Assembly (NCBI GenBank): GCA_027317865.1
Contig: DAHVQG010000007.1
Location: 86,408-150,407 of the forward strand
Direction: 5' to 3'
DNA from: Bdellovibrionales bacterium
Lineage (GTDB): Bacteria > Bdellovibrionota > Bdellovibrionia > Bdellovibrionales > UBA1609
Length of the DNA stretch: 64,000 nucleotides
The notes under the pieces were generated by a model. The model was not told the DNA's origin. It saw only the letters and a list, made by a program, of their open reading frames with translations, and ran no database searches. Shown piece by piece: positions 116 through 12,045 of this stretch. The first letter of the stretch is position 1, and every line of letters begins with the position of its first letter. A program made the position numbers and the translations under genes.

Positions 116-2974
116 ATGACCAAACAAATTGAATTTAATCCTACTCCAGAGCAAAAAGCGGCAATTGACCACTTTGAGGGTCCTGCTGTCGTATTTGCTG
201 GACCGGGTTCGGGTAAAACTGAAGTTATTGTTAGACGTGTAGTGGCGCTGGTTACCACACGAGGCGTCAAGGCCGATCAGATATTTTTGACGACATTTAC
301 AAACAAAGCGGCTGATGAGCTTCGAGTTCGGTTGGCGCAAGTTTTACGTGAAACATTGCCCGAGGCCGAAGCCGACAGAATTGCGTCGAAAGTCAACGTC
401 GGGACCATACATTCAATGTGTTACCGAGTGTTGCGCGAATTTGGATTCAAATACGAGGCCACAGCAAAACCAGTTATGCCCGCCACAGAAGATGATCAAA
501 TTTTATTTCTGAATCGCTTTTACAATGAGTTTGGACTTAAAAAATTTTACGAGGACACCAAAGAATTTTGGAAGAACGAGGGATTCAAAGACCCTTTCAG
601 TAATTTTATTACCGGGTTAACTACAGCTTTAAATACGATTTCTGAAGAGTGCGACGACCCGGAAACAGTTCTACCGCAACTCGTGTCCGCTTCAAAAGAC
701 GAAGTGATGCGCGGTTGTTTTGAAGTTTACCTCAAATACCGCGCAAAGATGAAGAGTCTCAATCGCGTTGACCAAAGTATGGTTTTAAATCACGTCGGGG
801 CAATATTGCGTGAACACTCGGAGACTGCGAGGCACGTGCGTGAGACTTGGCCTTTCATTCTTGTGGATGAATACCAAGATACAAGTCCGTTGCAAGATAA
901 GATATTCGGTCTAATCTACTGTCCTGGGTCCAACATTATGGCCGTCGGTGACGACGATCAATCCATTTATCGATTCCGAAACGCGGAGCCAAAATTATTT
1001 TTGACATTCACAGAACGATTTGGGGTGAGAGCAGACCACCGATATGTCCTTGCCGAGAATAGGCGAGCTACCCCAAGTCTCGTCGATTTTTCGAAAAAAT
1101 TCATTGAAAAAAACAAAAACAGAAAATCGAAAGATTTGCGCGCAGCTAAAGATAATCCATCGGGCAATTCTCCAATTTATTTTCAGTCTAACGATAAGGG
1201 GCAGGCAGGTCTGGCTGTCAGTTGGATAAAGGAACTTAGGTCTTCTGGCAAAATCCCAAATTTTCGAAATGCCGCGATAATTACATTTTCAGTAGGTCAT
1301 TTTGCATACGACGTGCAGTCTCATTGCCACTCGCTGGGAATTCCATACCGTATCGAATCGGATAAAGCGTTTTTGAAACATCCAACGCTCAAAGGTTTTA
1401 TTGATTTATTGGACGCCGCTCAATCAACCGAGCCACCGACGCCGGGCAAGTTGAATTCAAGAAGCAAGCTTAGAAAAGCTTATGATGCCTTCGGAAAAAC
1501 TGGATGTTCTAAGGATGAAATTGTTCGTGATCTTTCATACTGGCAACATCGGCTTGCTCATGCAGAAAGAAGCGATAATCTTTTAAAACTCTTTTACGCG
1601 TTCATTGATCGATATAAATTAATCGGTCGCGAAACGGTATCCGAAACCATGAAAGCACTCGGACAGTTTAGCGTCTTGGTTGCAAAATTCGAAGAGGGGC
1701 GCCGATCAACGGCGTTTCAGCCACCGACCACTATGCTGGATGGAGCCGATGCAGTTGAAGAGCCGTTATCACCATCAGATCAAAAGGCTCTTGAAAATGT
1801 AAAAGAAACTTTTCCGCCGGATTGGCTCAGTCGTCGTGCGAACAGATTTATTCGTTACCTTAGTATGCTGAATCTTTCCAATGAGCCAGAGGAGCTTGAA
1901 GATTATTTGCTCGTAACTACTATTCATAAAGCCAAGGGGTTAGAATTTGATGCCGTCGCTATACTGGGTGTTGATTCTTGGTGCTTTCCGGGCGATCCTT
2001 CTCCGGGCCTTCGCGACAAAGTACGGTTCGAACTTAATGGTCACTCTTACAAGAACTCTGATGTAATTGAAGAAAAGCGTCGACTTTTATACGTCGCGAT
2101 GACGCGAGCGCGGCGATCACTTCTGCTTACGGCAGGCGAGAAACAAACGTCTCCATTCATAGCCGAGGCGGATTTAGAATCACTTGGTTCAGAACAAATT
2201 TTAGAAAATCTACCACATATTTATGCGCCAAAGCAAAAGCGAGAGCTAGAAATACTAAGACTAAGTCACGGTCAGGTAACAAGCTACCTTGAGTGCCCAA
2301 AGCGGTACTTGCTTGAACATCATTATGACTTTCAAGGTCTCGCAACGCCGGCATTGCGCTTAGGTCATGCTTTGCACCGGGCAATTGAAAATGCGCACCG
2401 GTGGCAAATGGAACAGAATCAACCATTAGATGAAACACTTCTGAAGACCATCTTCGCTCAAACTTGGCCGCTGCCAAAGAAAACGAAAGACGACTTTCTT
2501 CAGTATTCAGATTATGAAAAAACTTTTTTAAACTACTTTACGCATAACAACAAGCTGCAAAGGCAGGTTGTAACAGTAGAGAGCGATCTTGCCGTTGTCA
2601 GGTCATCAAATATTCTGACGGGCAAAATAGATGTGCTTCAATCGCAGAAAGAGAAACCAATTATTGTTGAAATTAAGCTTAATTATAACCGACAGAATCT
2701 TGAACATGCAAAACAACAACTCAATCATTATGCCTTAGCCTTTCCGGACCAAGAAGTTGATTTGAAAGCTCAATTTCTTCGGGGGCGAAAGTTTGAAGAA
2801 GAAATTGAACGCCGGGATAAAAACGAAGTCAAAGAACAGGTGGCCGAGGTATTTGGGCGAGTGCGGGAACAAAACTTTAAACCAAATCCAAAAAAAGATA
2901 AGTGTTCAAACTGTCGGATGAACAAAATATGTTGCGAGGGCCGTGAGTTGTTGCGGCCGGCAAGGGCTGCTTAG
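116..2974 (+). CDS. UvrD/PcrA-type SF1 helicase fused to a C-terminal Cas4/AddB-like PD-(D/E)xK nuclease with a 4-Cys (Fe-S) signature
   Basis: Helicase motifs: PEQKAAI (Q), FAGPGSGKT (I), TFTNKAADEL (Ia), LVDEYQDTSP (II), VGDDDQSIYRFRNA (III), ENRRATPS (IV), TIHKAKGLEFD (V), LLYVAMTRAR (VI). C-terminal nuclease motifs: SYLECPKRY, GKIDVL...IVEIK (D...ExK), QLNHY, and terminal CSNCRMNKICC. Confidence 0.85.
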   Translation: MTKQIEFNPTPEQKAAIDHFEGPAVVFAGPGSGKTEVIVRRVVALVTTRGVKADQIFLTTFTNKAADELRVRLAQVLRETLPEAEADRIASKVNVGTIHSMCYRVLREFGFKYEATAKPVMPATEDDQILFLNRFYNEFGLKKFYEDTKEFWKNEGFKDPFSNFITGLTTALNTISEECDDPETVLPQLVSASKDEVMRGCFEVYLKYRAKMKSLNRVDQSMVLNHVGAILREHSETARHVRETWPFILVDEYQDTSPLQDKIFGLIYCPGSNIMAVGDDDQSIYRFRNAEPKLFLTFTERFGVRADHRYVLAENRRATPSLVDFSKKFIEKNKNRKSKDLRAAKDNPSGNSPIYFQSNDKGQAGLAVSWIKELRSSGKIPNFRNAAIITFSVGHFAYDVQSHCHSLGIPYRIESDKAFLKHPTLKGFIDLLDAAQSTEPPTPGKLNSRSKLRKAYDAFGKTGCSKDEIVRDLSYWQHRLAHAERSDNLLKLFYAFIDRYKLIGRETVSETMKALGQFSVLVAKFEEGRRSTAFQPPTTMLDGADAVEEPLSPSDQKALENVKETFPPDWLSRRANRFIRYLSMLNLSNEPEELEDYLLVTTIHKAKGLEFDAVAILGVDSWCFPGDPSPGLRDKVRFELNGHSYKNSDVIEEKRRLLYVAMTRARRSLLLTAGEKQTSPFIAEADLESLGSEQILENLPHIYAPKQKRELEILRLSHGQVTSYLECPKRYLLEHHYDFQGLATPALRLGHALHRAIENAHRWQMEQNQPLDETLLKTIFAQTWPLPKKTKDDFLQYSDYEKTFLNYFTHNNKLQRQVVTVESDLAVVRSSNILTGKIDVLQSQKEKPIIVEIKLNYNRQNLEHAKQQLNHYALAFPDQEVDLKAQFLRGRKFEEEIERRDKNEVKEQVAEVFGRVREQNFKPNPKKDKCSNCRMNKICCEGRELLRPARAA

Positions 2975-3000
2975 ATCAATTCGCACAAAGAGGGTTCCAA

Positions 3001-3999
3001 GTGGCTTTCAGACAGATTGATGAACCGCTACGAGACGACGAAAAATCCCGCTTTGTAAGACTAGATGGGATCACTCCACAACGAGCCCCCAAGGACGAGC
3101 TTAAAGGATTAGATTTTGACACAATGTTATTCGTTGGTTCTGGAGCAATTGACGGCGGATGGCAACCAATCAGGCAACTTTGTACCGAAATAATTGACGG
3201 TAGATTTCTGGGGCTCGTCGATTATGGGACTAATAATTGCTACTTCTAAAATGAACCTTATGACCACTTTCTAACCTCGATTGCGTTCATGGAAACTTCG
3301 CTCAGGTCACGCTTCGCGCGCGCACTTCGAGAATCTAATTTTTCTGAAAGTCAGTCGTTTAAGATGTATTCAAATGCTGTGTCTACAAGAGAGAAAATGG
3401 CTGAAATTTTTAGAGCCGAGAAATCACTCCAATTGCGCAGTCTGGACCAACTTGAGCACGGGATCGATCTAGATCGGACTATTGTTGTTACATCGAATTG
3501 GGACGACTGCGTTTGGTCCGATAAAAGATTTAAGCACTTAATCTACTTACATGGCCACTGCAAAATAAAAAACTCAATTGTTTTGCCTACTCAGTTTGTA
3601 ACAGATGAATACCCATTGAAATATTGGATTGACCTACAATATAAAAATAGCAGCTACGAAGCGCGAGTTGCTTTGGGCAACGTGAAATTGATTTCGGGCT
3701 GGCTTAAGGTTATACCGGATCTTCCTAGGGGCGATGAGCAAGATGTTCAACTTGAACTGAGTTACGCACACGATCTACTTCGCGAGGTGATCTCGTGCGG
3801 AAAACTAAAGCGTATGTTAATTTGGGGTTACGGTTTTAATTTGTATGATGCCGAAGTTAATCTTTTACTGACACTTGCGAGTCAAATGTACAATCCGAAA
3901 ATAGAAATTATAAATCCAGATCCCACGGTCTTGCTGAAGGCGGCGCAGGTGTTAGCAGTTCCAATAAACAACATCGGTTATCATCACCCATCAAAATAA
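3001..3999 (+). pseudogene. SIR2-like (SIR2_2 / DHS-like NAD-binding fold) protein, one reading frame interrupted by a single in-frame TAA at 3247-3249
   Basis: ORFs 3001-3249 and 3289-3999 are in the same frame, with 13 sense codons and no other stop between them. The N-terminal part has LFVGSGAIDGGW (GAG-type NAD loop). The C-terminal part has IVVTSNWDDCVW (TTNYD-like Asn motif), LIYLHGH (catalytic His motif) and IVLPTQFVTDEY. There is no SD before the 3289 ATG. The gene starts 26 nt after the helicase stop. Confidence 0.6.
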
Positions 4000-4044: not shown

Positions 4045-4272
4045 TTATTCCGCCTCTAAATCCACCAGATTTTTGAGCGGAACTCCAATTGTATTAGCAA
4101 TTCGCGCTAACGTATAAATTTCTGGACTGGTGAGGCCATTTTCAATTTTACTCATTGTTCCACGTGAAAATTCACCTTCGAGATAGACCCTGTCCTGACT
4201 ATACCCTTGTTGCTTGCGAATTTTAGCGATATGAGCGCCGAGTTTTTTTAGAAATTGTTTCTTTTTCACCAT
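4045..4272 (-). CDS. XRE/Cro-CI family helix-turn-helix transcriptional regulator (likely the element's repressor)
   Basis: 75 aa with a typical HTH_3 pattern: LGAHIAKIRKQQGYSQDRVYLEGEFSRGTMSKIENG...EIYTLARIANTIGV. It is divergent from the replication module. Confidence 0.85.
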   Translation of the reverse strand: MVKKKQFLKKLGAHIAKIRKQQGYSQDRVYLEGEFSRGTMSKIENGLTSPEIYTLARIANTIGVPLKNLVDLEAE

Positions 4273-4550: not shown

Positions 4551-5762
4551 ATGCCAAAAACACTAAAGCAAAAAATAAAAGCGCTAAAACTAAAGGACAC
4601 AAAAATATTAAGCGACGTCGAACACGCCGAGTTCATAAAAGACGTAAGAACTTCGGTAAGCCAAAGCGAGCCGCCGGATGATTCCTTTTGGAGTAATGAT
4701 GATTGGAATGTCGACGTTGAGGTTGGATTTCCTAAACGAATTATAACACTCGACATTGAAACTTTCGGGCGCATTGATCCTCGAACAGATGCTATGCCAA
4801 AGGTGGGAGTCATTGGTATAAAAGCATTTGAATTCGTGAATTCACGCAAGGGGTATATTGCTAAGGACTATCTATGCTATAACGATCAGGAAATCGGACA
4901 TGCAGAAAAAGTCCTTAAGCGCACGAAATGTCCGATCCTGGGTTATAACCTTTTTAACTTTGACTACCGAGTCTTAAACTCTTTTTTCAGTGTAAGCGAT
5001 TTAATTCCGAGAACTGTTGATTTGCTTTGGTATTTTGCATCGCGGGCGAAGAGTTGTCGGCGGGCTTTACAAGGCTATTCGTTAAATGCCATGTCGCAAT
5101 TAAATTTGAAAAAAAGGAAATTGACGAGTTCCGAAACCGTTCCTGAACTGTTGGCCCAGGGTAAGATCGGCCTAGTCAAGAAGCACAACGAACGTGATCT
5201 TGATCTCACGTTCTTGCTTTGGCACAAATACTTGGCCAGGAATTGGCTGATAATTTGCCCTCCGTTAATTTCGTATGATCGTTTGCCGTTATTAGAATCA
5301 GATGTCCCATTTCTTGTTGGTCAGCAACCGATGTTAACGGCGGAGCAATGGCCCGCATTTGTAAAAGCTCGCGCCACCGGAAATTTTTTTAAGAGCCGAA
5401 GCGATCGCGACAAGGGGGGCATAATTCTTGTTTGTGACCCGGAATTCGAAATGACGGGCGTGCATCGCGAATTCGGTGAAATCGGTAACATTGAATACAA
5501 AATGTACTACCTGTTCTGTGCGGTATGCGGTTGGAATGTCACTTTGCTGTCTTTAGCTGATCGTCGAGATTACCTACGGTCGAAAGTCTACCTTCCGTGT
5601 CCTCTATGCCATCCAGAGCTTAAATCAGTGTATGAAGAGGCGGGTTTAACGGTGGGACGCAGATACTCCAAAGGGCTGAAATGTCCAATTAGGGGAGGCG
5701 CGGCCGACAAAAAATATTTAATGCACTTAGTTCGAAGAAGCCTGCGTGAATTGACCACGTAA
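4551..5762 (+). CDS. RNase-H-like/DEDD 3'-5' exonuclease domain protein with a Cys-rich (Zn-ribbon-like) C-terminus
   Basis: Strong SD (gagggaggaga-ATG). Exo-like motifs: ITLDIETFG (ExoI), ILGYNLFNFDYRVL (ExoII), KKHNERDLDLT (ExoIII-like). C-terminal CAVCGW...CPLCHPE. Confidence 0.5.
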   Translation: MPKTLKQKIKALKLKDTKILSDVEHAEFIKDVRTSVSQSEPPDDSFWSNDDWNVDVEVGFPKRIITLDIETFGRIDPRTDAMPKVGVIGIKAFEFVNSRKGYIAKDYLCYNDQEIGHAEKVLKRTKCPILGYNLFNFDYRVLNSFFSVSDLIPRTVDLLWYFASRAKSCRRALQGYSLNAMSQLNLKKRKLTSSETVPELLAQGKIGLVKKHNERDLDLTFLLWHKYLARNWLIICPPLISYDRLPLLESDVPFLVGQQPMLTAEQWPAFVKARATGNFFKSRSDRDKGGIILVCDPEFEMTGVHREFGEIGNIEYKMYYLFCAVCGWNVTLLSLADRRDYLRSKVYLPCPLCHPELKSVYEEAGLTVGRRYSKGLKCPIRGGAADKKYLMHLVRRSLRELTT

Positions 5763-5921
5763 TGGCATCAATTTTGTTGCATTTCCTTTCAATAACATTG
5801 GTTGTTCAATTTTTTTTTAAATTCATTCCTGGCGTTGAAGCAACGGCCTAAAATGCATCGAGATGAGTGGACCAAAGTCGTAATCGATCCAGATTCATAT
5901 TTATTTTGACGATGATAATGT

Positions 5922-6869
5922 GTGGAACCGAACTACTTCATTTCAAATATTAAGCGTCTTGGAATTACTGAAGATGAGGCAAGATTTTTTGGCGATCTAA
6001 GGTTATTTTTGCAAAATGATTCAAAATTTATTTTGAGCGAAACGTTTGGGCTGTGTTCTAGAGCTCGTCAATGCATTGAGGGCTACCAGACCCATTGTGA
6101 CCGAAGCCCACTGTTTGCTTTCGATCCGGATTTATTCGGCTATGGTCAAAAAATGTTTTCTGAGGTTGTTCCAAAAAAAATGGGTCGAAAAAGAAAGCGG
6201 GACACAGAGCGCAGAGTCCCCCTAAAACACCGATACCCACTTATAGATGATGAATATGATTTTGTAGGGTTGTACTCTATTCCGAGTCCTACTAATTTCG
6301 GAAGCATTGACCTTTCACAATTTGACCTAGAAACGAAGCTCTTTCCCGATCTCATGCCGTACTGTTTCGATGTTTACGAGCCACTATTTGAAAGCACTAT
6401 TGCAATTTACAGAAAAAAGATACGTCTAGCCTCGGTAGTTTATTTTGGAAAAAATTTGGTAACGTTATGGCAAAGAGCTCAGGAAGGCGACATCGGGGCT
6501 GCCGCAGCTATTGCTCGGATTGAACGTCATGTTTTTAAATTTAATGACCTACCAGGCTCTCGCGTTTTCGCAAAATTGGCGAAAAAACCTATGCGGCCAG
6601 GAATGGCAAATAAATGGCAAATAAAGATTGATCAAGCACCGAGGCTTGGCGGAGCCTGGAAGCGGATATTGGTGATTGCCTATTGTTGGAATTCGCGATT
6701 CATTCACCTGAAGTTGAATGAGCTATTGGCAGTGCTTGTTGGCCTAGACGTTGCGGATAAGAATCTCAATTGCGATACTTTAAAGAGATTTCTATATAGG
6801 TATGGATTCAAAAAGTCGCCCCACCGCATCCCGCCAAGAGGGAAAAAGCGAGCAATCACGAGTAGTTAA
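5922..6869 (+). CDS. Hypothetical protein (orphan; basic KKMGRKRKRDTERR patch)
   Basis: Long ORF in the co-directional replication module. It has a GTG start and no motif I recognise. Confidence 0.4.
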   Translation: MEPNYFISNIKRLGITEDEARFFGDLRLFLQNDSKFILSETFGLCSRARQCIEGYQTHCDRSPLFAFDPDLFGYGQKMFSEVVPKKMGRKRKRDTERRVPLKHRYPLIDDEYDFVGLYSIPSPTNFGSIDLSQFDLETKLFPDLMPYCFDVYEPLFESTIAIYRKKIRLASVVYFGKNLVTLWQRAQEGDIGAAAAIARIERHVFKFNDLPGSRVFAKLAKKPMRPGMANKWQIKIDQAPRLGGAWKRILVIAYCWNSRFIHLKLNELLAVLVGLDVADKNLNCDTLKRFLYRYGFKKSPHRIPPRGKKRAITSS

Positions 6870-6926
6870 ATAAAATCCAATTTGTCATCCTTATTTCTTA
6901 TCAAAATTCTGCCATGGTTCTGCTTT

Positions 6927-8634
6927 ATGAATTCAAAAGACGCACAACTAATCGCAGTGGATTTTGAAACCGATGACGTTCAGTTTTTCAACAAGAAGAA
7001 TCGCAAGGAGCTAAGCTGGTCAGGACACCCGCGATTGGCCCAGGCAATGATTGTCAGTAATCGAGATGAAACGGCCTGCAACGCTACAGAAAATATAAAG
7101 GACCTTTCTGTGCCAGACGGTTCTGTGATTTTGTTTCATAACGCTGCGTTTGACATTCAGGTTGGAATAAATTCGGGAGTGTGGTGTGAACACAGTTTCA
7201 AAGTTTGATTTTCATTGTACGGCGACAATGGCGAAACTTTCTCATAATTTGCGGAGTGCCCGATTGAAGGATTTGGCGCTAGACCTGCTAGGTGAACAAA
7301 AAATCGTTCGCTACGAAGAAGCGAAAACGGGCTCGGCTGAAGGTTTTTTGAACTATGCAAAAAAGGATGCAGATTATACCTTTCGCCTTTTTCCGGTTCT
7401 GAAGCGAGAACTCGATGACAAAAATCTTTGGGAACTGTACGAATTTGTCGAAAAACCATTTTTGCTTATCAATTTGGAGTGCCAGAGAAACGGTATTCGT
7501 TACGATGTTGATGCAGCCCGCGATGAAATTTCATCTCTTGACGAGAAGATTGCGCTTACAAAGTTAAAGCTCAACGACCCGAAAATGAACTGGAACTCAC
7601 ATAAGCAACTTCAAAGAAAACTCTATGGGGAGCGCGGCATTCCACTTGCGTACCATAAGGGCAAGGTATCTACCGGTAAACGGGCGTTACAATCTCGGGC
7701 GCAAGATTCACTGGTACGAGCCGTGTTAGAGCTAAAAGAATGCGAAGCATTGAAGCGACAAATCTTAACCATTAAAAAATTTGTCGACCCAAATACCGGA
7801 AGAATTCACGGATATATAAATCCGCTTGGGGCTGATACGGGCCGAGTAACTTCGTCTTCCCCGAATCTTCAGAATATTAAAAAGGACTCAGTTTTGAGAA
7901 AAATGTTCGTAGCGAGCAAAGGCTATAGCTTGATAGCACTTGATTTCAGCCAGATTGAGCCCAGGGTGCTCGCTCACTTTTTAGGAAAACAAACACCATT
8001 TGCACGGCTATTCGACGTTGACGAAGATTTTTATGGCTTGCTCGCTTCTGAACTAAAACTCGAAATTCACAAACAAAGTGATGCTCGCGCCGTAGTTAAG
8101 CAAATTGTCTTGGCAACACTTTATGGTATGGGTCCAAAAACTTTAAGTGAAAATCTTAAAGTCACTCAACTAAATGCGTCCGAGATTCTGAACTTATTTT
8201 TCTCGAAGTTTCCAGAGATTGTTGAATTCAAAAATCAAATGATCGCAGAGGCTCGTGAAAAAGAATATGTAATTGGGCTTTTGAACCGTAGGCGCTACAT
8301 TAAGAGTTTAAACGACGTCGATAACAAGTTGAAATTTCGAGCCGAACGGCAAGTGTTGAATTCAATAGTACAAGGTTCTGCAGCTACTATTTTTAAATTC
8401 AAAGGATGCGAACTTCGACGGCAACTGCCATCGACCGTTCGATTTCTTCATCATGTCCACGACGAGTATATTTTAGAGGCACCAGAACAAGACGCGTCTG
8501 TTATGTATCGACTAGCAAAGCAAATTTTAGAAAGACCGCTACCATGGTTCTCAATTCCGTTGAAAGTCGATGGCGGAATAGGTCGATCATGGTTGGATGC
8601 AAAAAACGCAAACAAAAAGAAAGGGGGTGAATAA
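6927..8634 (+). pseudogene. Family A (Pol I-like) DNA polymerase with 3'-5' exonuclease domain, split by a +1 frame change between 7171 and 7205
   Basis: ORF 1 (frame 0, ATG at 6927) carries ExoI LIAVDFETDD and ExoII LFHNAAFD. ORF 2 (frame 1) carries ExoIII YAKKDADYTFRL, motif A LIALDFSQIEPRVLAHF, motif B RAVVKQIVLATLYGMG and motif C HHVHDEYILE. The exonuclease domain therefore spans the frame break. Confidence 0.8.
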
Positions 8635-8635
8635 A

Positions 8636-8917
8636 ATGAATGTATCAGAAGTCAGAGTGTTCCCGGTTCCGGGAAACTCAAAACTGAAGGCAAAGGCTGA
8701 TGTGACTTTTCTTTTAGAGAACGGCGCACGCTTAGCCGTAAAAGGTTTTAGAGTTCACGATGATGGAGAAAAGCCACCGTGGGTTGGAGTACCCACGGAG
8801 CGTGTAACTAGAAACGGGAAAACGGAATATTTCAATAATATTTGGATCGATGCGATTGGCCAATCACAAGTCTATCCGAAAATTATAGAAGAATACAACC
8901 GGTTGATAAAAAAATAG
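8636..8917 (+). CDS. spoVG: SpoVG-family nucleic-acid-binding protein homologue
   Basis: MNVSEVRVFPV...KLKAKADVTF...LAVKGFRVHDDG...PWVGVPTERVTRNGKTEYFNNIW resembles the SpoVG N-terminal fold pattern (MxVTDVR...KA.A.V...V.....V). The ATG at 8636 follows the SD aagggggtga. Confidence 0.65.
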   Translation: MNVSEVRVFPVPGNSKLKAKADVTFLLENGARLAVKGFRVHDDGEKPPWVGVPTERVTRNGKTEYFNNIWIDAIGQSQVYPKIIEEYNRLIKK

Positions 8918-8963
8918 CCGAATACTGTTTAAACATTCAGTTTCGGCGCATCCAAGTGGATGT

Positions 8964-9000
8964 GTTTTCACGGGGGCGCCGTTAGGCGCCCCCTGAAAAC
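8964..9000. other. Long GC-rich stem-loop (16-bp stem, one bulged C, GTTA loop) upstream of the Rep gene; candidate replication origin or structured element
   Basis: gttttcaCgggggcgcc-gtta-ggcgccccctgaaaac. No T-tract follows on either strand, so it is not a classical intrinsic terminator. Confidence 0.4.
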
Positions 9001-9074
9001 CAAAATGTTCTCGGTAAAGCTCGGAGGCGAGTTAATGGAGTGGTTTATTCAAAATTTTACGGAAGAGAGGACAA

Positions 9075-9938
9075 ATGAAAAATTCGGGAATGAATAATCT
9101 CAGAGAAGTTCGGAGAATTTATTCGGAGGTAGCACGGAGTAATTCCCTTGATTGTATTAAGCGTAACTCCAACAAGGGCAACTCGGCGCGAGGGCTAGCT
9201 GGGATCGAAGCTCCATGTCGAGCGGCAAAATACATTTTAAAAGGGGTAGCCGACGAGGACGGTCTGTTCCCTCACTATAAAACTTTTTGCAAGTCGTATA
9301 ACTGCGAGTTTTGTGGCCCCAGAAAGAGAGCCTTAATTCGACACGCAATTGCCCTTGCTATTGAAAAATACAAATTGATTTCCTTTGCGACACTAACGCT
9401 TGATCCGAAGACTTGCAAATGTGGGCCAGAGGGTTCGGCTAAATATATTCGGCGAGCATGGAATAAGTTTCGTGTACTTCAGAAACGTGAATTTAACAGG
9501 GGGTTAGAGTTTGTCGCAGTAATTGAGTTTCAGAAAAATGGCTACGCTCATCTTCATATTGTGTTTGATCGGTATATCCCGCACACATGGTTGAAAGAAA
9601 AGTGGGTGAACGTTGGCGGCGGTAAAATCGTAGACGTTAGAAAATGTGATGCGAAAGCATCATACTATCTTGCAAAATACTTGGGCAAAGAATTGCTCCC
9701 AGAATATGCACAGAAGATTCGACGGTACTCAACGTCAAAAAACATCAACTTAAATCGCTTATTAAAGGAAAACCGTAAAAACGATGGTTCGATATATGAG
9801 TTTGTAAAAATAAGTGAGCAAGACGCGAGAGATATTCTTAAAGAATATATCGAGGCCGATATTCTTGACCCTAAAGATCATATTTTAGGCTTCAAAGCGA
9901 GCAAATCATTAAATACAGAACACGGGGAGGCAATTTGA
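9075..9938 (+). CDS. HUH-superfamily rolling-circle replication initiator (Rep)
   Basis: Motif 1 FATLTLDPK, HUH motif YAHLHIVFD, Tyr motif ASYYLAKYLGKE. The N-terminal CEFCGPRK is Zn-finger-like. Confidence 0.65.
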   Translation: MKNSGMNNLREVRRIYSEVARSNSLDCIKRNSNKGNSARGLAGIEAPCRAAKYILKGVADEDGLFPHYKTFCKSYNCEFCGPRKRALIRHAIALAIEKYKLISFATLTLDPKTCKCGPEGSAKYIRRAWNKFRVLQKREFNRGLEFVAVIEFQKNGYAHLHIVFDRYIPHTWLKEKWVNVGGGKIVDVRKCDAKASYYLAKYLGKELLPEYAQKIRRYSTSKNINLNRLLKENRKNDGSIYEFVKISEQDARDILKEYIEADILDPKDHILGFKASKSLNTEHGEAI

Positions 9939-10549: not shown

Positions 10550-10861
10550 ATGAATAATTTAAAAAATTCGCATTTTTCGAAATTATCAGTTCTACAAGGC
10601 CCTTCAAATACGTTAAATAATAAAAACTCATCGCTCTTTCAAAATAGAATAGGTACGGCTGATGCCATTGATGACTCCGGCGAGTGGTTGACGACTGACG
10701 AGGCGGCTGAATATTTGCGAATTTCACCGGCTAGCTTGCGAAATTTATCGAGCAGTGGTCGGGTCCCGTATTACAAATGGCAAAGGCGAAATAGATATAA
10801 GAAAAATGACCTCAGAGACCTCCTTCTCGCCAACAGAAGAGGGAGAATAATATGGGAGTAA
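10550..10861 (+). CDS. Excisionase / MerR-type HTH DNA-binding protein
   Basis: C-terminal WLTTDEAAEYLRISPASLRNLSSSGRVPYYKWQRRNRYKKNDL matches the excisionase-family HTH_17 pattern. Its stop overlaps the integrase start (ATGGGAGTAA). Confidence 0.6.
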   Translation: MNNLKNSHFSKLSVLQGPSNTLNNKNSSLFQNRIGTADAIDDSGEWLTTDEAAEYLRISPASLRNLSSSGRVPYYKWQRRNRYKKNDLRDLLLANRRGRIIWE

Positions 10862-11955
10862 AATTCAATGATCGAACCGGTTTTTATGAGGCATCATATA
10901 GCCAGCGGCACCCGATAACGAGGATGCCCGTTACACTGCGACGCTTACGAATAAGAACAAAATCTGAAGCTGAACGAGTTTATCGGGAGTTGATTGTATC
11001 AGTTAACGACAAAATTCGGCGAAAGACGATTCCCGACTGGCCGACCGCTGTTGAAGCATATCTTAAACACGCGCTAAATGAAGGATTCATGTCGATCACG
11101 ATAGAGAACTATCGGCTTTGTTTAACGGCTCATACTTTTGGTCCGTGGTGTGACAAACTGATCGATCAAATTTCAACGGATGAAATTCGCGAGCTGATTC
11201 GAGGCAAAGAAAAATCGCACTCGGTATCAACTCAAAAGAGCATATTGAAAATGATTCGTGGTGTTTTCAAGTATGCCGTTGAAAAGAACTTCGTGAGTCG
11301 AGACCCTACTCCACACATGAAGTTTCGAATCGGTGACAAAATCAAACGTGTGTTGGCCGAGAGCCAGGCGTCGATGTTGCTGCATAAGGCGCAGGAGTTA
11401 AACAGCGAATGGTATCCGATTTGGGCAATGGCGCTTTATACGGGGATGCGAAACGGTGAACTGTACGCGCTGACTTGGGATAAAGTGAGCTTCGAGCGGA
11501 ATTTTGTGTTGGTCGATACTTCGTGGAATAACAAGGATGGGTTCAAATCTACGAAAACCGGCGACGACCGAATCATAGACATAGCCCCGCACCTCCTGAG
11601 TCTATTGAAAGAACTCAAATTGCAAAGTGCTGATCGTGCGTTTGTACTTCCGCGAATTCAAAAGTGGGACGATGGTTACCAGGCCGAGGTATTGCGACAA
11701 TTTTTGATCGGCATCAACATTCCGCCCGTTCGATTTCACGATTTGAGAGCTTCGTGGGCAACGATGCTTCTCAATAAAGGTGTCGAGCCAGTGAAAGTGA
11801 TGGCAATGGGCGGATGGAAAGACATCAAAACCATGATGATTTACATGCGGAAAGCTGGAGTCGATATCAAAGGGAGCGCGAGCTGTTTGACGTTTCATGA
11901 ACCGAACCGTGGTTCAGCCAAGGTCCTAAATTTCGACTCTGGAAGCACGCCGTAG
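10852..11955 (+). CDS. Tyrosine recombinase / phage-type integrase
   Basis: ALYTGMRNGEL (Arg I), HDLRASWATMLL (HxxR), GGWKDIKTMMIYMRK (catalytic Tyr). The N-terminus is SAM-like. Confidence 0.9.
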   Translation: MGVKFNDRTGFYEASYSQRHPITRMPVTLRRLRIRTKSEAERVYRELIVSVNDKIRRKTIPDWPTAVEAYLKHALNEGFMSITIENYRLCLTAHTFGPWCDKLIDQISTDEIRELIRGKEKSHSVSTQKSILKMIRGVFKYAVEKNFVSRDPTPHMKFRIGDKIKRVLAESQASMLLHKAQELNSEWYPIWAMALYTGMRNGELYALTWDKVSFERNFVLVDTSWNNKDGFKSTKTGDDRIIDIAPHLLSLLKELKLQSADRAFVLPRIQKWDDGYQAEVLRQFLIGINIPPVRFHDLRASWATMLLNKGVEPVKVMAMGGWKDIKTMMIYMRKAGVDIKGSASCLTFHEPNRGSAKVLNFDSGSTP

Positions 11956-11992: not shown

Positions 11993-12013
11993 AGGTGGCG
12001 AAGGCCGCCACCT
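11993..12013. terminator. GC-rich hairpin between convergent int and the chromosomal gene (possible bidirectional terminator or att-proximal structure)
   Basis: aggtggcg-aaggc-cgccacct. It has an 8-bp stem and no clear T-tract. Confidence 0.3.
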
Positions 12014-12045
12014 CCAAATTCAAGAGTTGTGATCCTGCATGGCGC

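Follow-up and report, generated by a model that had tools for sequence, protein, structure and literature searches.

The left end of a 64,000-nt stretch of a Bdellovibrionales bacterium genome (GenBank assembly GCA_027317865.1, contig DAHVQG010000007.1, positions 86,408 to 150,407 of the forward strand; hereafter the window) carries two adjacent genes on a putative integrative element: gene 1, which codes for a UvrD-type superfamily 1 (SF1) helicase fused to a Cas4-like nuclease, and gene 2, which codes for a SIR2-like protein. We consider it fairly likely that these are two independent genes on an integrative, self-replicating element, gene 1 being autonomous and gene 2 an AbiH-like single-gene cargo that is dead in this genome. 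The fusion found in gene 1 is of a known kind and gene 2 is a new, dead member of the single-gene SIR2/AbiH-like proteins, while the pairing of the two, which look like chance neighbours on one mobile element, is not supported in the sample of loci available to us.

An original prediction, made from the DNA letters, had read the two genes as a candidate two-gene anti-phage cassette. Its description of the locus was borne out: Pfam domains and all the listed motifs confirmed the 952-aa UvrD protein with a Cas4-like iron-sulphur (Fe-S) nuclease, reading of the sequence confirmed that the next gene lies 26 nt downstream on the same strand and has SIR2-type motifs and an in-frame TAA at position 3247, and an HTH_3 match identified the XRE repressor gene on the minus strand that converges on the pair. 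The presence of an integrative element with this repressor as the carrier is also supported, by an integrase, an excisionase and an att repeat, as is the SIR2-like fold of gene 2, by structure search, conserved motifs and weak family links to AbiH and SIR2_2. The two-gene cassette itself fared differently, as described below.

Genomic neighbourhoods of the two genes

The contexts of the gene 2 family were read at nine other loci (L001, L002, L004, L005, L012, L013, L022, L023, and L024; Table 1), the upstream flank, on the helicase side, being readable in eight of them and L004 being cut on that side. Searching these loci with gene 1 (phmmer) revealed a UvrD-like open reading frame (ORF) in none of the nine, and all-against-all BLAST of their ORFs left gene 2 alone, together with its antisense shadows, as the common gene; integrases were also shared, between L004 and the window only. 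In the opposite direction, no gene 2 relative was present in the four loci of helicase homologues whose DNA was scanned (L006-L009), the called genes at the locus of the gene 1 relative P0030 include no helicase or SIR2 Pfam family, and the annotation of three plasmid helicase loci lists no gene 2-type gene. Gene 2 thus behaves as a single-gene module like AbiH, because its contexts all differ and no partner is conserved; integrase, recombinase or toxin-antitoxin genes are nearby in L001 and L004, and L005 is a defence island. The original prediction had itself named a lack of co-occurrence of helicase homologues with SIR2 genes outside this lineage as grounds for refuting the cassette, and in the sample available no such co-occurrence was seen, either in the nine gene 2 loci or in the four scanned helicase loci.

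One of the nine loci, L005, has the look of a retron/DRT-like defence island, and it holds two different SIR2-type genes.

Table 1. Features of the element in the window (positions 1 to 64,000) and of the loci of homologues that were read.
Feature	Position	Strand	Basis or context
Gene 1, 952-aa UvrD-type SF1 helicase fused to Cas4/AddB-type Fe-S PD-(D/E)xK nuclease, intact	116-2974	+	Pfam, PHROGs, motifs
Gene 1 helicase core, aa 10-673	143-2134	+	Pfam and motif reading
Gene 1 nuclease domain, aa 715-940	2258-2935	+	PDDEXK_1 (aa 715-939), PADLOC Cas4 models, motifs
Gene 2, 332-codon stand-alone SIR2-like (AbiH-like) gene, predicted pseudogene here	3001-3999	+	Homologues, AlphaFold2 model, Foldseek
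In-frame TAA in place of a Tyr codon (TAC/TAT)	3247-3249	+	Homologue proteins and DNA; second assembly (L011)
XRE/Cro-C1-type helix-turn-helix repressor, converges on gene 2	4045-4272	-	HTH_3, 6.8e-10; PHROG transcriptional regulator/repressor families
Element replication module	4551-9938	+	PHROGs, Pfam, further scans
403-aa exonuclease-like orphan	4551-5762	+	Weak DnaQ/PolA-exonuclease-like N-terminal half (phrog_17, 2.5e-5), Cys-rich C-terminus
315-aa orphan of the replication module		+	Follows the 403-aa orphan
Family A polymerase (PolA) split by a frame change	6882-7208 / 7186-8634	+	Two ORFs that overlap but differ in frame
SpoVG-like gene, overlaps the PolA end	8597-8917	+	PF04026, 1e-4, under the Pfam cut-off
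Rolling-circle Rep-like gene	9075-9938	+	REP_ORF2-G2P, 1.8e-13
HTH_17 excisionase-like gene	10550-10861	+	HTH_17, 2e-12
Tyrosine integrase	10852-11955	+	Phage_integrase, 2.7e-21; PHROG 1 integrase, 5e-50
Putative attR core CCGCCACCTCCAAA, 14-mer	12005-12018	+	~50 nt past the integrase stop; repeated at the tmRNA/tRNA-like 3' end
Gene 2 family locus L001			Amid integrase, recombinase and toxin-antitoxin genes
Gene 2 family locus L002			Preceded by DUF4160-type small genes; contig ends just downstream
Gene 2 family locus L004			Contig begins 23 nt upstream; downstream, two integrases, Mom, FtsK and a relaxase-like gene
Gene 2 family locus L005	740-7663		Island with a 1047-aa SIR2_2 protein, reverse transcriptase (RVT_1), PRTase-CE and SRAP
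Gene 2 family loci L012, L013, L022, L023, L024			Short contig (2.5 kb or less) or different neighbours
Plasmid cassette: helicase-nuclease, Type III-like methyltransferase, TnsA-N/DEAD-box 'Res-like' protein	L019 4965-12205; L020 4977-12278; L021 4995-12411

The SIR2-like protein and its family

A search of 5.8e9 proteins with gene 2 returned only eight relatives (P0002-P0009; 327-341 aa), which are 52-59% identical to it over 97-100% of the query, and the protein has no match in Pfam (E <= 1), PADLOC (including its SIR2 models), PHROGs, or NCBIfam. Gene 2 and these eight full-length homologues made up alignment A1 (nine sequences), and a HMMER profile search with it through 1.84e9 cluster representatives brought together 162 proteins at E <= 1e-3, of which 84 were at E <= 1e-10; among the 150 matches listed, lengths range from 82 to 411 aa and are mostly around 300 aa. 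In the resulting 85-sequence alignment G46, G48, D168, and G276 are invariant, and P56, N166, W167, H184, G185, P196, Y282, and D283 are conserved in at least 90% of the sequences. The A1 profile gave no confirmed relatives in the genome, viral and metagenome collections. A degenerate DNA pattern for VITTNWDE had six matches in genome contigs, which by our own estimate is about the chance expectation, and these included one true member of the gene 2 family (L013) and one SIR2_2 protein (L018).

The AlphaFold2 model of gene 2 obtained with the 85-sequence alignment is of high confidence (predicted local distance difference test, pLDDT, 94.4; predicted template modelling score, pTM, 0.92), with all five models above 93, and it supersedes an earlier run on nine sequences in which only one of the five models was confident. 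The predicted protein is a single domain with the layout beta1-GxG, helical insert, beta-(T/S)NWD, beta-xLHG and further beta-alpha units. The strand at residues 41-45 is followed by GSGA, TSNWD lies on the strand at 160-164, and LHGH comes after the strand at 180-182, so that the model has a Rossmann-type core with a Gly-rich loop after beta1, and the Asn/Asp (TxNxD) and HG His motifs follow in order on consecutive strands. A Foldseek search of the Protein Data Bank (PDB) with this model placed defence SIR2 proteins at all of ranks 1-20, with a probability of up to 0.99: these are the SIR2 protein of Escherichia coli SIR2-HerA/Nezha (8sub, 8su9, 8suw, 8uae, 8sxx, 8j4u) or DSR2 (8xfe). The first, nine-sequence model retrieved these proteins as well and, in addition, ThsA and SirTM, and the viral structures of BFVD gave no match to the gene 2 model.

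The family motifs point in the same direction. The three most conserved of them (GxG, N-W-D, and H-G) have the order and spacing of the NAD-loop, Asn/Asp and catalytic His of SIR2 proteins, and the motifs of gene 2 align with TTNAD...H.QG of SirTM (5a3a) and with TTNWD...HG of a SIR2_2 protein. Furthermore, among the 84 aligned family members, Pfam AbiH was matched by nine (best 5.8e-6) and SIR2_2 by six (best 1.8e-3), and in PADLOC the PDC-S25 model was matched by 14 (best 2.4e-7), in a stretch of only ~70 residues around NWD within its 517 positions, with single members matching several SIR2 models. The hhalign comparison of the family with the SIR2_2 protein L018 (Pfam 5.8e-21) yielded a probability of 95% and an E-value of 2e-8 over the NWD...HG...P-S core, although this E-value is inflated, L018 having been retrieved through the motif VITTNWDE. 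A SIR2/DHS-like fold with NAD-loop, Asn/Asp and His motifs is therefore supported for the modelled protein, because a confident model finds defence SIR2s, the GxG, NWD and HG motifs are nearly invariant, and distant relatives touch AbiH, SIR2_2, and PDC-S25. The gene 2 family is a divergent, unannotated clade which is closest to AbiH.

Besides this inflated value, several results weigh against such an assignment. The Foldseek matches are weak, with a best E-value of 2.5e-3 and none at E <= 1e-3, template modelling (TM) scores of 0.33-0.43 and root-mean-square deviations of 11-17 A; gene 2 and its close clade match no SIR2 or AbiH model directly, gene 2 giving no match above threshold to the SIR2 profiles PF02146 and PF13289; and hhalign against two unselected SIR2_2 proteins gave E-values of 0.08 and 0.21 over short stretches on the HG and GxG motifs. 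One could then suppose that gene 2 is neither a NADase nor a defence protein, and that it has some other function on a Rossmann fold, for instance as an enzyme of another type or as a regulator that binds a nucleotide or cofactor, its resemblance to SIR2 being one of general topology only. The lack of direct Pfam, PADLOC, and NCBIfam matches, the TM scores below 0.5, the fact that searches of PDB sequences with the gene 2 profiles (A1 and A2) gave nothing significant, and the contexts of L002 and L013, which are not obviously defensive, would all fit this idea. However, we regard it as unlikely, since the top 20 structural matches are all defence SIR2 proteins and not generic Rossmann proteins, the three motifs agree with those of SIR2 in order and spacing, family members touch AbiH, SIR2_2, PDC-S25, and the PADLOC SIR2 models, and homologues are found in mobile elements and in a retron/SIR2 defence island.

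The premature stop codon

Gene 2 starts at GTG 3001, which is preceded by a Shine-Dalgarno-like sequence (AGAGGG), and continues in a single frame through to the TAA at 3997-3999, with the motifs GSGA at aa 46-49, TSNWD at aa 164-168, and LHGH at aa 183-186. The in-frame TAA is codon 83, and it leaves the GSGA NAD-loop in an 82-aa fragment, severed from the NWD/HG half. All eight full-length homologous proteins have Tyr at this position, and in the seven homologous genes read at DNA level the codon is always TAC or TAT, which indicates that the TAA of the window is the product of one TAY-to-TAA transversion. The same TAA is present in a second assembly (Logan contig L011, run SRR13205815), which has no mismatches to the window across 6,744 nt. 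Alignment A1 has 82 invariant columns, none of which is lost in the window copy. Since the intact homologues all have Tyr where the window has TAA, gene 2 is best described as a recently inactivated pseudogene in this genome.

It speaks against this conclusion that L011 and the window assembly may share reads, in which case both could carry a common error at the TAA. The codon would then be an assembly or sequencing error or, alternatively, would be read through, and gene 2 would be functional in vivo, which would agree with a frame that is otherwise clean over 332 codons and that keeps every invariant column. We find this even less probable than a role outside the SIR2 enzymes, given that the second assembly has the identical base, that a substitution is atypical of homopolymer-type assembly errors, and that a second lesion, the frame change in PolA, lies within the same element. 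Stop-codon recoding was rejected, because TAA is also gene 2's own terminator.

The helicase-nuclease

Gene 1 combines in a single polypeptide an N-terminal UvrD SF1 helicase and a C-terminal four-Cys Cas4-like nuclease, the architecture of the UvrD-Cas4 fusions. Pfam identified UvrD-helicase (4.4e-64, profile positions 2-270 of 271) and UvrD_C (1e-26) and, in the C-terminal part, PDDEXK_1 (2.7e-21, profile positions 1-246 of 247) and Cas_Cas4 (3.3e-8). The PHROGs matches were phrog_1967 'DNA helicase' (6.8e-81) and phrog_69 'exonuclease' (1.4e-12), and PADLOC Cas4 models matched aa 701-952 (2.5e-14). The Walker A motif GPGSGKT is found at aa 29-35 (nt 200-220), motif II (DEYQD) at aa 251-255 (nt 866-880), and helicase motifs V/VI at nt 1919-2113. 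The nuclease active-site motifs are GKIDV (aa 836-840, with D839), VEIK (aa 851-854, E852-x-K854), and QQLNHY (aa 867-872, the QxxxY motif), and the four Fe-S cysteines are in CPKRY (aa 727-731, Cys727) and CSNCRMNKICC (aa 930-940, C930-x2-C933-x5-C939-C940).

The closest relatives of gene 1 are 28-32% identical and ~890-1085 aa long, and the named ones are gammaproteobacterial. Two of them whose loci were read (P0014 and P0030) each stand alone: the genes around them are unrelated, some being of housekeeping type, and a toxin-antitoxin pair is among them. A tblastn search of plasmids retrieved 42 records with 23-24% identity whose alignments cover 80% or more of the protein, and full-length alignment to these 42 plasmid-borne proteins of like architecture suggests that the helicase domain of gene 1 may belong to the fusion clade; with the plasmid members located beside Type III-like Mod/Res genes, the alignment spans 97-99% of the query. 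On plasmids of Enterococcus faecium, Phaeobacter inhibens, and Blastomonas the helicase-nuclease is the first gene of a three-gene cassette (Table 1), whose third, TnsA-N/DEAD-box protein has no PADLOC match. This cassette is the context published for the UvrD-Cas4 fusion branch (PMC5704561). According to that work, UvrD-Cas4 fusions form a monophyletic branch of pfam12705, often stand alone or are linked to Type III restriction-modification or Dcm-Vsr genes, and were proposed by the authors to have an ancillary role in several (defence) pathways (Hudaiberdiev et al. 2017, PMC5704561). By its sequence, gene 1 can be assigned to this already described family.

Other helicase models gave high but generic similarity. 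The NCBIfam models pcrA (3e-64) and addA (7.5e-47) were matched with scores far under the curated cut-offs, at 217.7 of the 911 bits set for the pcrA equivalog, 159.9 of 708 for addA and 132 of 696 for recB, and gene 1 is thus an equivalog of none of them. The PADLOC GajB model also matched gene 1 (1e-55), and we consider such GajB matches generic because P0014, which is solitary among unrelated chromosomal genes, scores about equally.

At one further locus (L008, 2468-14895), a 26%-identical UvrD-Cas4 relative adjoins an operon of a cyclic-oligonucleotide-based anti-phage signalling system (CBASS; SMODS, E2, SAVED) on one side. On its other side there are a Dam-like methylase, a HerA-like DUF87 ATPase, a 440-aa protein without assignment, and a second UvrD helicase. 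This island is possibly an uncharacterised multi-gene defence module.

The carrier element

Both genes lie on what the sequence indicates to be a ~15.1-kb integrative element inserted at a 3' end resembling that of transfer-messenger RNA (tmRNA) or tRNA, this extent being set by the direct repeat found at the tmRNA-like 3' end and after the integrase. The second copy of CCGCCACCTCCAAA is at positions 17-30 of L011, ~3,060 nt ahead of window position 1, and ~0.015 chance matches would be expected by our own arithmetic over the compared lengths. L011 extends past the left end of the window by 3,076 nt, and its first 28 nt match a tmRNA 3' end (RF00023, E 2e-5, 5'-cut); Rfam at gathering thresholds gave no match. 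The G+C content is ~0.42 up to 12 kb of the window and 0.45-0.51 beyond. Past the element, the window continues as ordinary chromosomal DNA, whose genes include FtsH, GlmM-like, and S1.

Within the replication module (Table 1), the 403-aa orphan had no homologue besides itself among the 5.8e9 proteins. In the case of PolA, the first ORF carries the Exo I/II motifs and the second the remaining exonuclease domain and the polymerase, and the split could be either a frameshift pseudogene or a programmed shift. The element shows two lesions, the nonsense mutation of gene 2 and the frame change of PolA, and a PolA frameshift beside the gene 2 stop is consistent with decay of the element.

A complete prophage was rejected, as Pfam and PHROGs scans of the element genes they covered gave no capsid or tail protein, nor was there one among the precomputed Pfam families of the left arm, whose genes were scanned with NCBIfam only in addition to those families. 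Comparison of the element with phages by blastn gave no relatives, and searching viral contigs with gene 1 and PolA gave nothing, or one 23% match. In the left arm, outside the window (L011 1978-2958), there is a gene in a stretch of higher G+C content (~0.51, against 0.42-0.45 over most of the contig) for a 326-aa protein with a signal/lipoprotein-like N-terminus. This protein is matched neither by NCBIfam nor by a precomputed Pfam family, and may be separate cargo.

Discussion

In the explanation that we favour, gene 1 would be a stand-alone, ATP-driven enzyme that unwinds DNA and resects its ends, and it would serve the element's own DNA transactions (replication or end processing) together with the rolling-circle Rep-like initiator and PolA. 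We consider this its most likely role because rolling-circle initiators classically need, and recruit, an SF1 helicase of the Rep/PcrA/UvrD type, and it would be almost as likely to act as an accessory nuclease in defence or against restriction. Two points weigh against the replicative role: the published contexts of UvrD-Cas4 fusions lean to defence over replication (PMC5704561), and no relatives of the element were found among which the helicase would recur as a core replication gene.

An intact gene 2 protein, in turn, would bind NAD+ through its GxG loop and, upon phage infection, hydrolyse it by means of N166/D168 and H184, aborting the infection. We infer this NADase activity and defence role from the SIR2 defence effectors, and the family would travel as single-gene cargo among mobile elements and defence islands. 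In the window copy the TAY-to-TAA change at codon 83 would have parted the NAD-binding loop from the catalytic half of the protein, killing the gene.

The two genes could instead form a lineage-specific cassette in which gene 1 would act as a sensor of replication intermediates or of the ends of foreign DNA and would thereby license its SIR2-like partner to deplete NAD+, the whole being now disabled by the nonsense mutation. What weighs for such a cassette, and against independent genes, is in the first place the arrangement itself, with both genes in the same orientation, just 26 nt apart, with a Shine-Dalgarno-like sequence ahead of the second one, so that in this genome they are probably co-transcribed. 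Moreover, domains of either type are found repeatedly in defence systems, UvrD-Cas4 fusions have been proposed as ancillary parts of several of these (PMC5704561), a 26%-identical relative of gene 1 is found in the CBASS/HerA island, and the position of the pair beside the element repressor is typical of cargo. It should also be considered that only nine family contexts could be read, five of them on contigs of 2.5 kb or less. However, none of those nine contains a UvrD-like ORF or any other conserved partner, none of the four scanned helicase loci contains a gene 2 relative and four more list none in their annotation, and the gene 2 family resembles single-gene AbiH. PADLOC called no defence system at the locus, and its GajB matches are generic. 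As the UvrD-Cas4 fusion had already been published (PMC5704561) and gene 2 is inactivated in this genome, we judge the cassette of the original prediction to be improbable, somewhat more so than an error at the TAA. Least probable of all is that the ~330-aa 'mini-SIR2' represents a new family of plug-in NADase effectors (162 representative clusters) which was captured in this lineage by a UvrD-Cas4 protein that senses the ends of phage DNA and licenses NAD+ depletion, and has just been inactivated here, the two making up an unnamed system.

With two independent genes as the preferred reading, the locus itself is of little weight, as the pairing is unsupported by the neighbourhoods, the fusion is known and the SIR2-like gene is dead, and it reminds us that the adjacency of two defence-flavoured domains on a mobile element does not make a system. 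The ~300-aa SIR2-like family, which is missed by PADLOC, Pfam, and NCBIfam, could be useful to improve the annotation of defence systems. If it is true that its members are active NADases, they would add to the AbiH-like effectors of abortive infection, which act as single genes, a clade that is compact and so far lacks annotation.

Comparison with known systems

The helicase core of gene 1 is of the SF1A UvrD type, like those of Gabija GajB, AddA, RecB, and PcrA, but GajB has no Fe-S nuclease, which is present in gene 1. Gabija was rejected, since no GajA (ABC-ATPase and TOPRIM nuclease) adjoins gene 1, and no GajA, AddB, or RecC/RecD partner was found among the element genes scanned. With the pfam12705 UvrD-Cas4 fusions (PMC5704561), gene 1 shares the architecture, a size of ~950 aa and a stand-alone or variable context. 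It differs from them in having no Mod/Res or Dcm/Vsr neighbours in the element, in being only 23-32% identical to any relative, and in its location on an integrative element with Rep and PolA, beside a SIR2-like gene.

In the case of gene 2, the best structural matches (8sub, 8su9, 8uae, 8xfe) are to the SIR2_2 (PF13289) defence domains of systems such as Nezha/SIR2-HerA, DSR2, and ThsA, with which it has the GxG, (T/S)-N-x-D, and H-G motifs in common. Unlike these systems, neither gene 2 nor the scanned element has HerA, TIR/ThsB, SLOG, pAgo/APAZ, or a C-terminal sensor of large size, and Pfam found no TIR, HerA/DUF87, Piwi, or APAZ domain in the element genes tested. Thoeris, Nezha, DSR1/DSR2, and SIR2-APAZ/pAgo were therefore rejected, as gene 2 is a single-domain protein of 332 aa that has none of the partners or sensors which define them, namely ThsB TIR with a SLOG domain, HerA, a sensor region that takes the protein beyond 1000 aa, and a short pAgo with APAZ. 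PDC-S25, a single-gene phage-defence candidate of PADLOC, is matched by 14 of the 84 members of the wider family, but not by gene 2 or P0002.

The closest counterpart is AbiH of Lactococcus lactis (PF14253), which has been described as a sirtuin-like 'SIRim' protein (PMC13064643; bioRxiv 10.1101/2024.09.18.613514). The two differ in that gene 2 and its close clade miss PF14253 even at E <= 0.1-1, neither the gene 2 protein nor P0002 reaching its gathering threshold, so that the link is made through intermediate relatives only, and in that the window copy is a pseudogene. AbiH and the modelled gene 2 protein are nevertheless alike in being SIR2-like, in standing alone and in lacking a Zn module or additional domains, and both AbiH and the gene 2 family are carried on integrative or mobile elements without a conserved partner.

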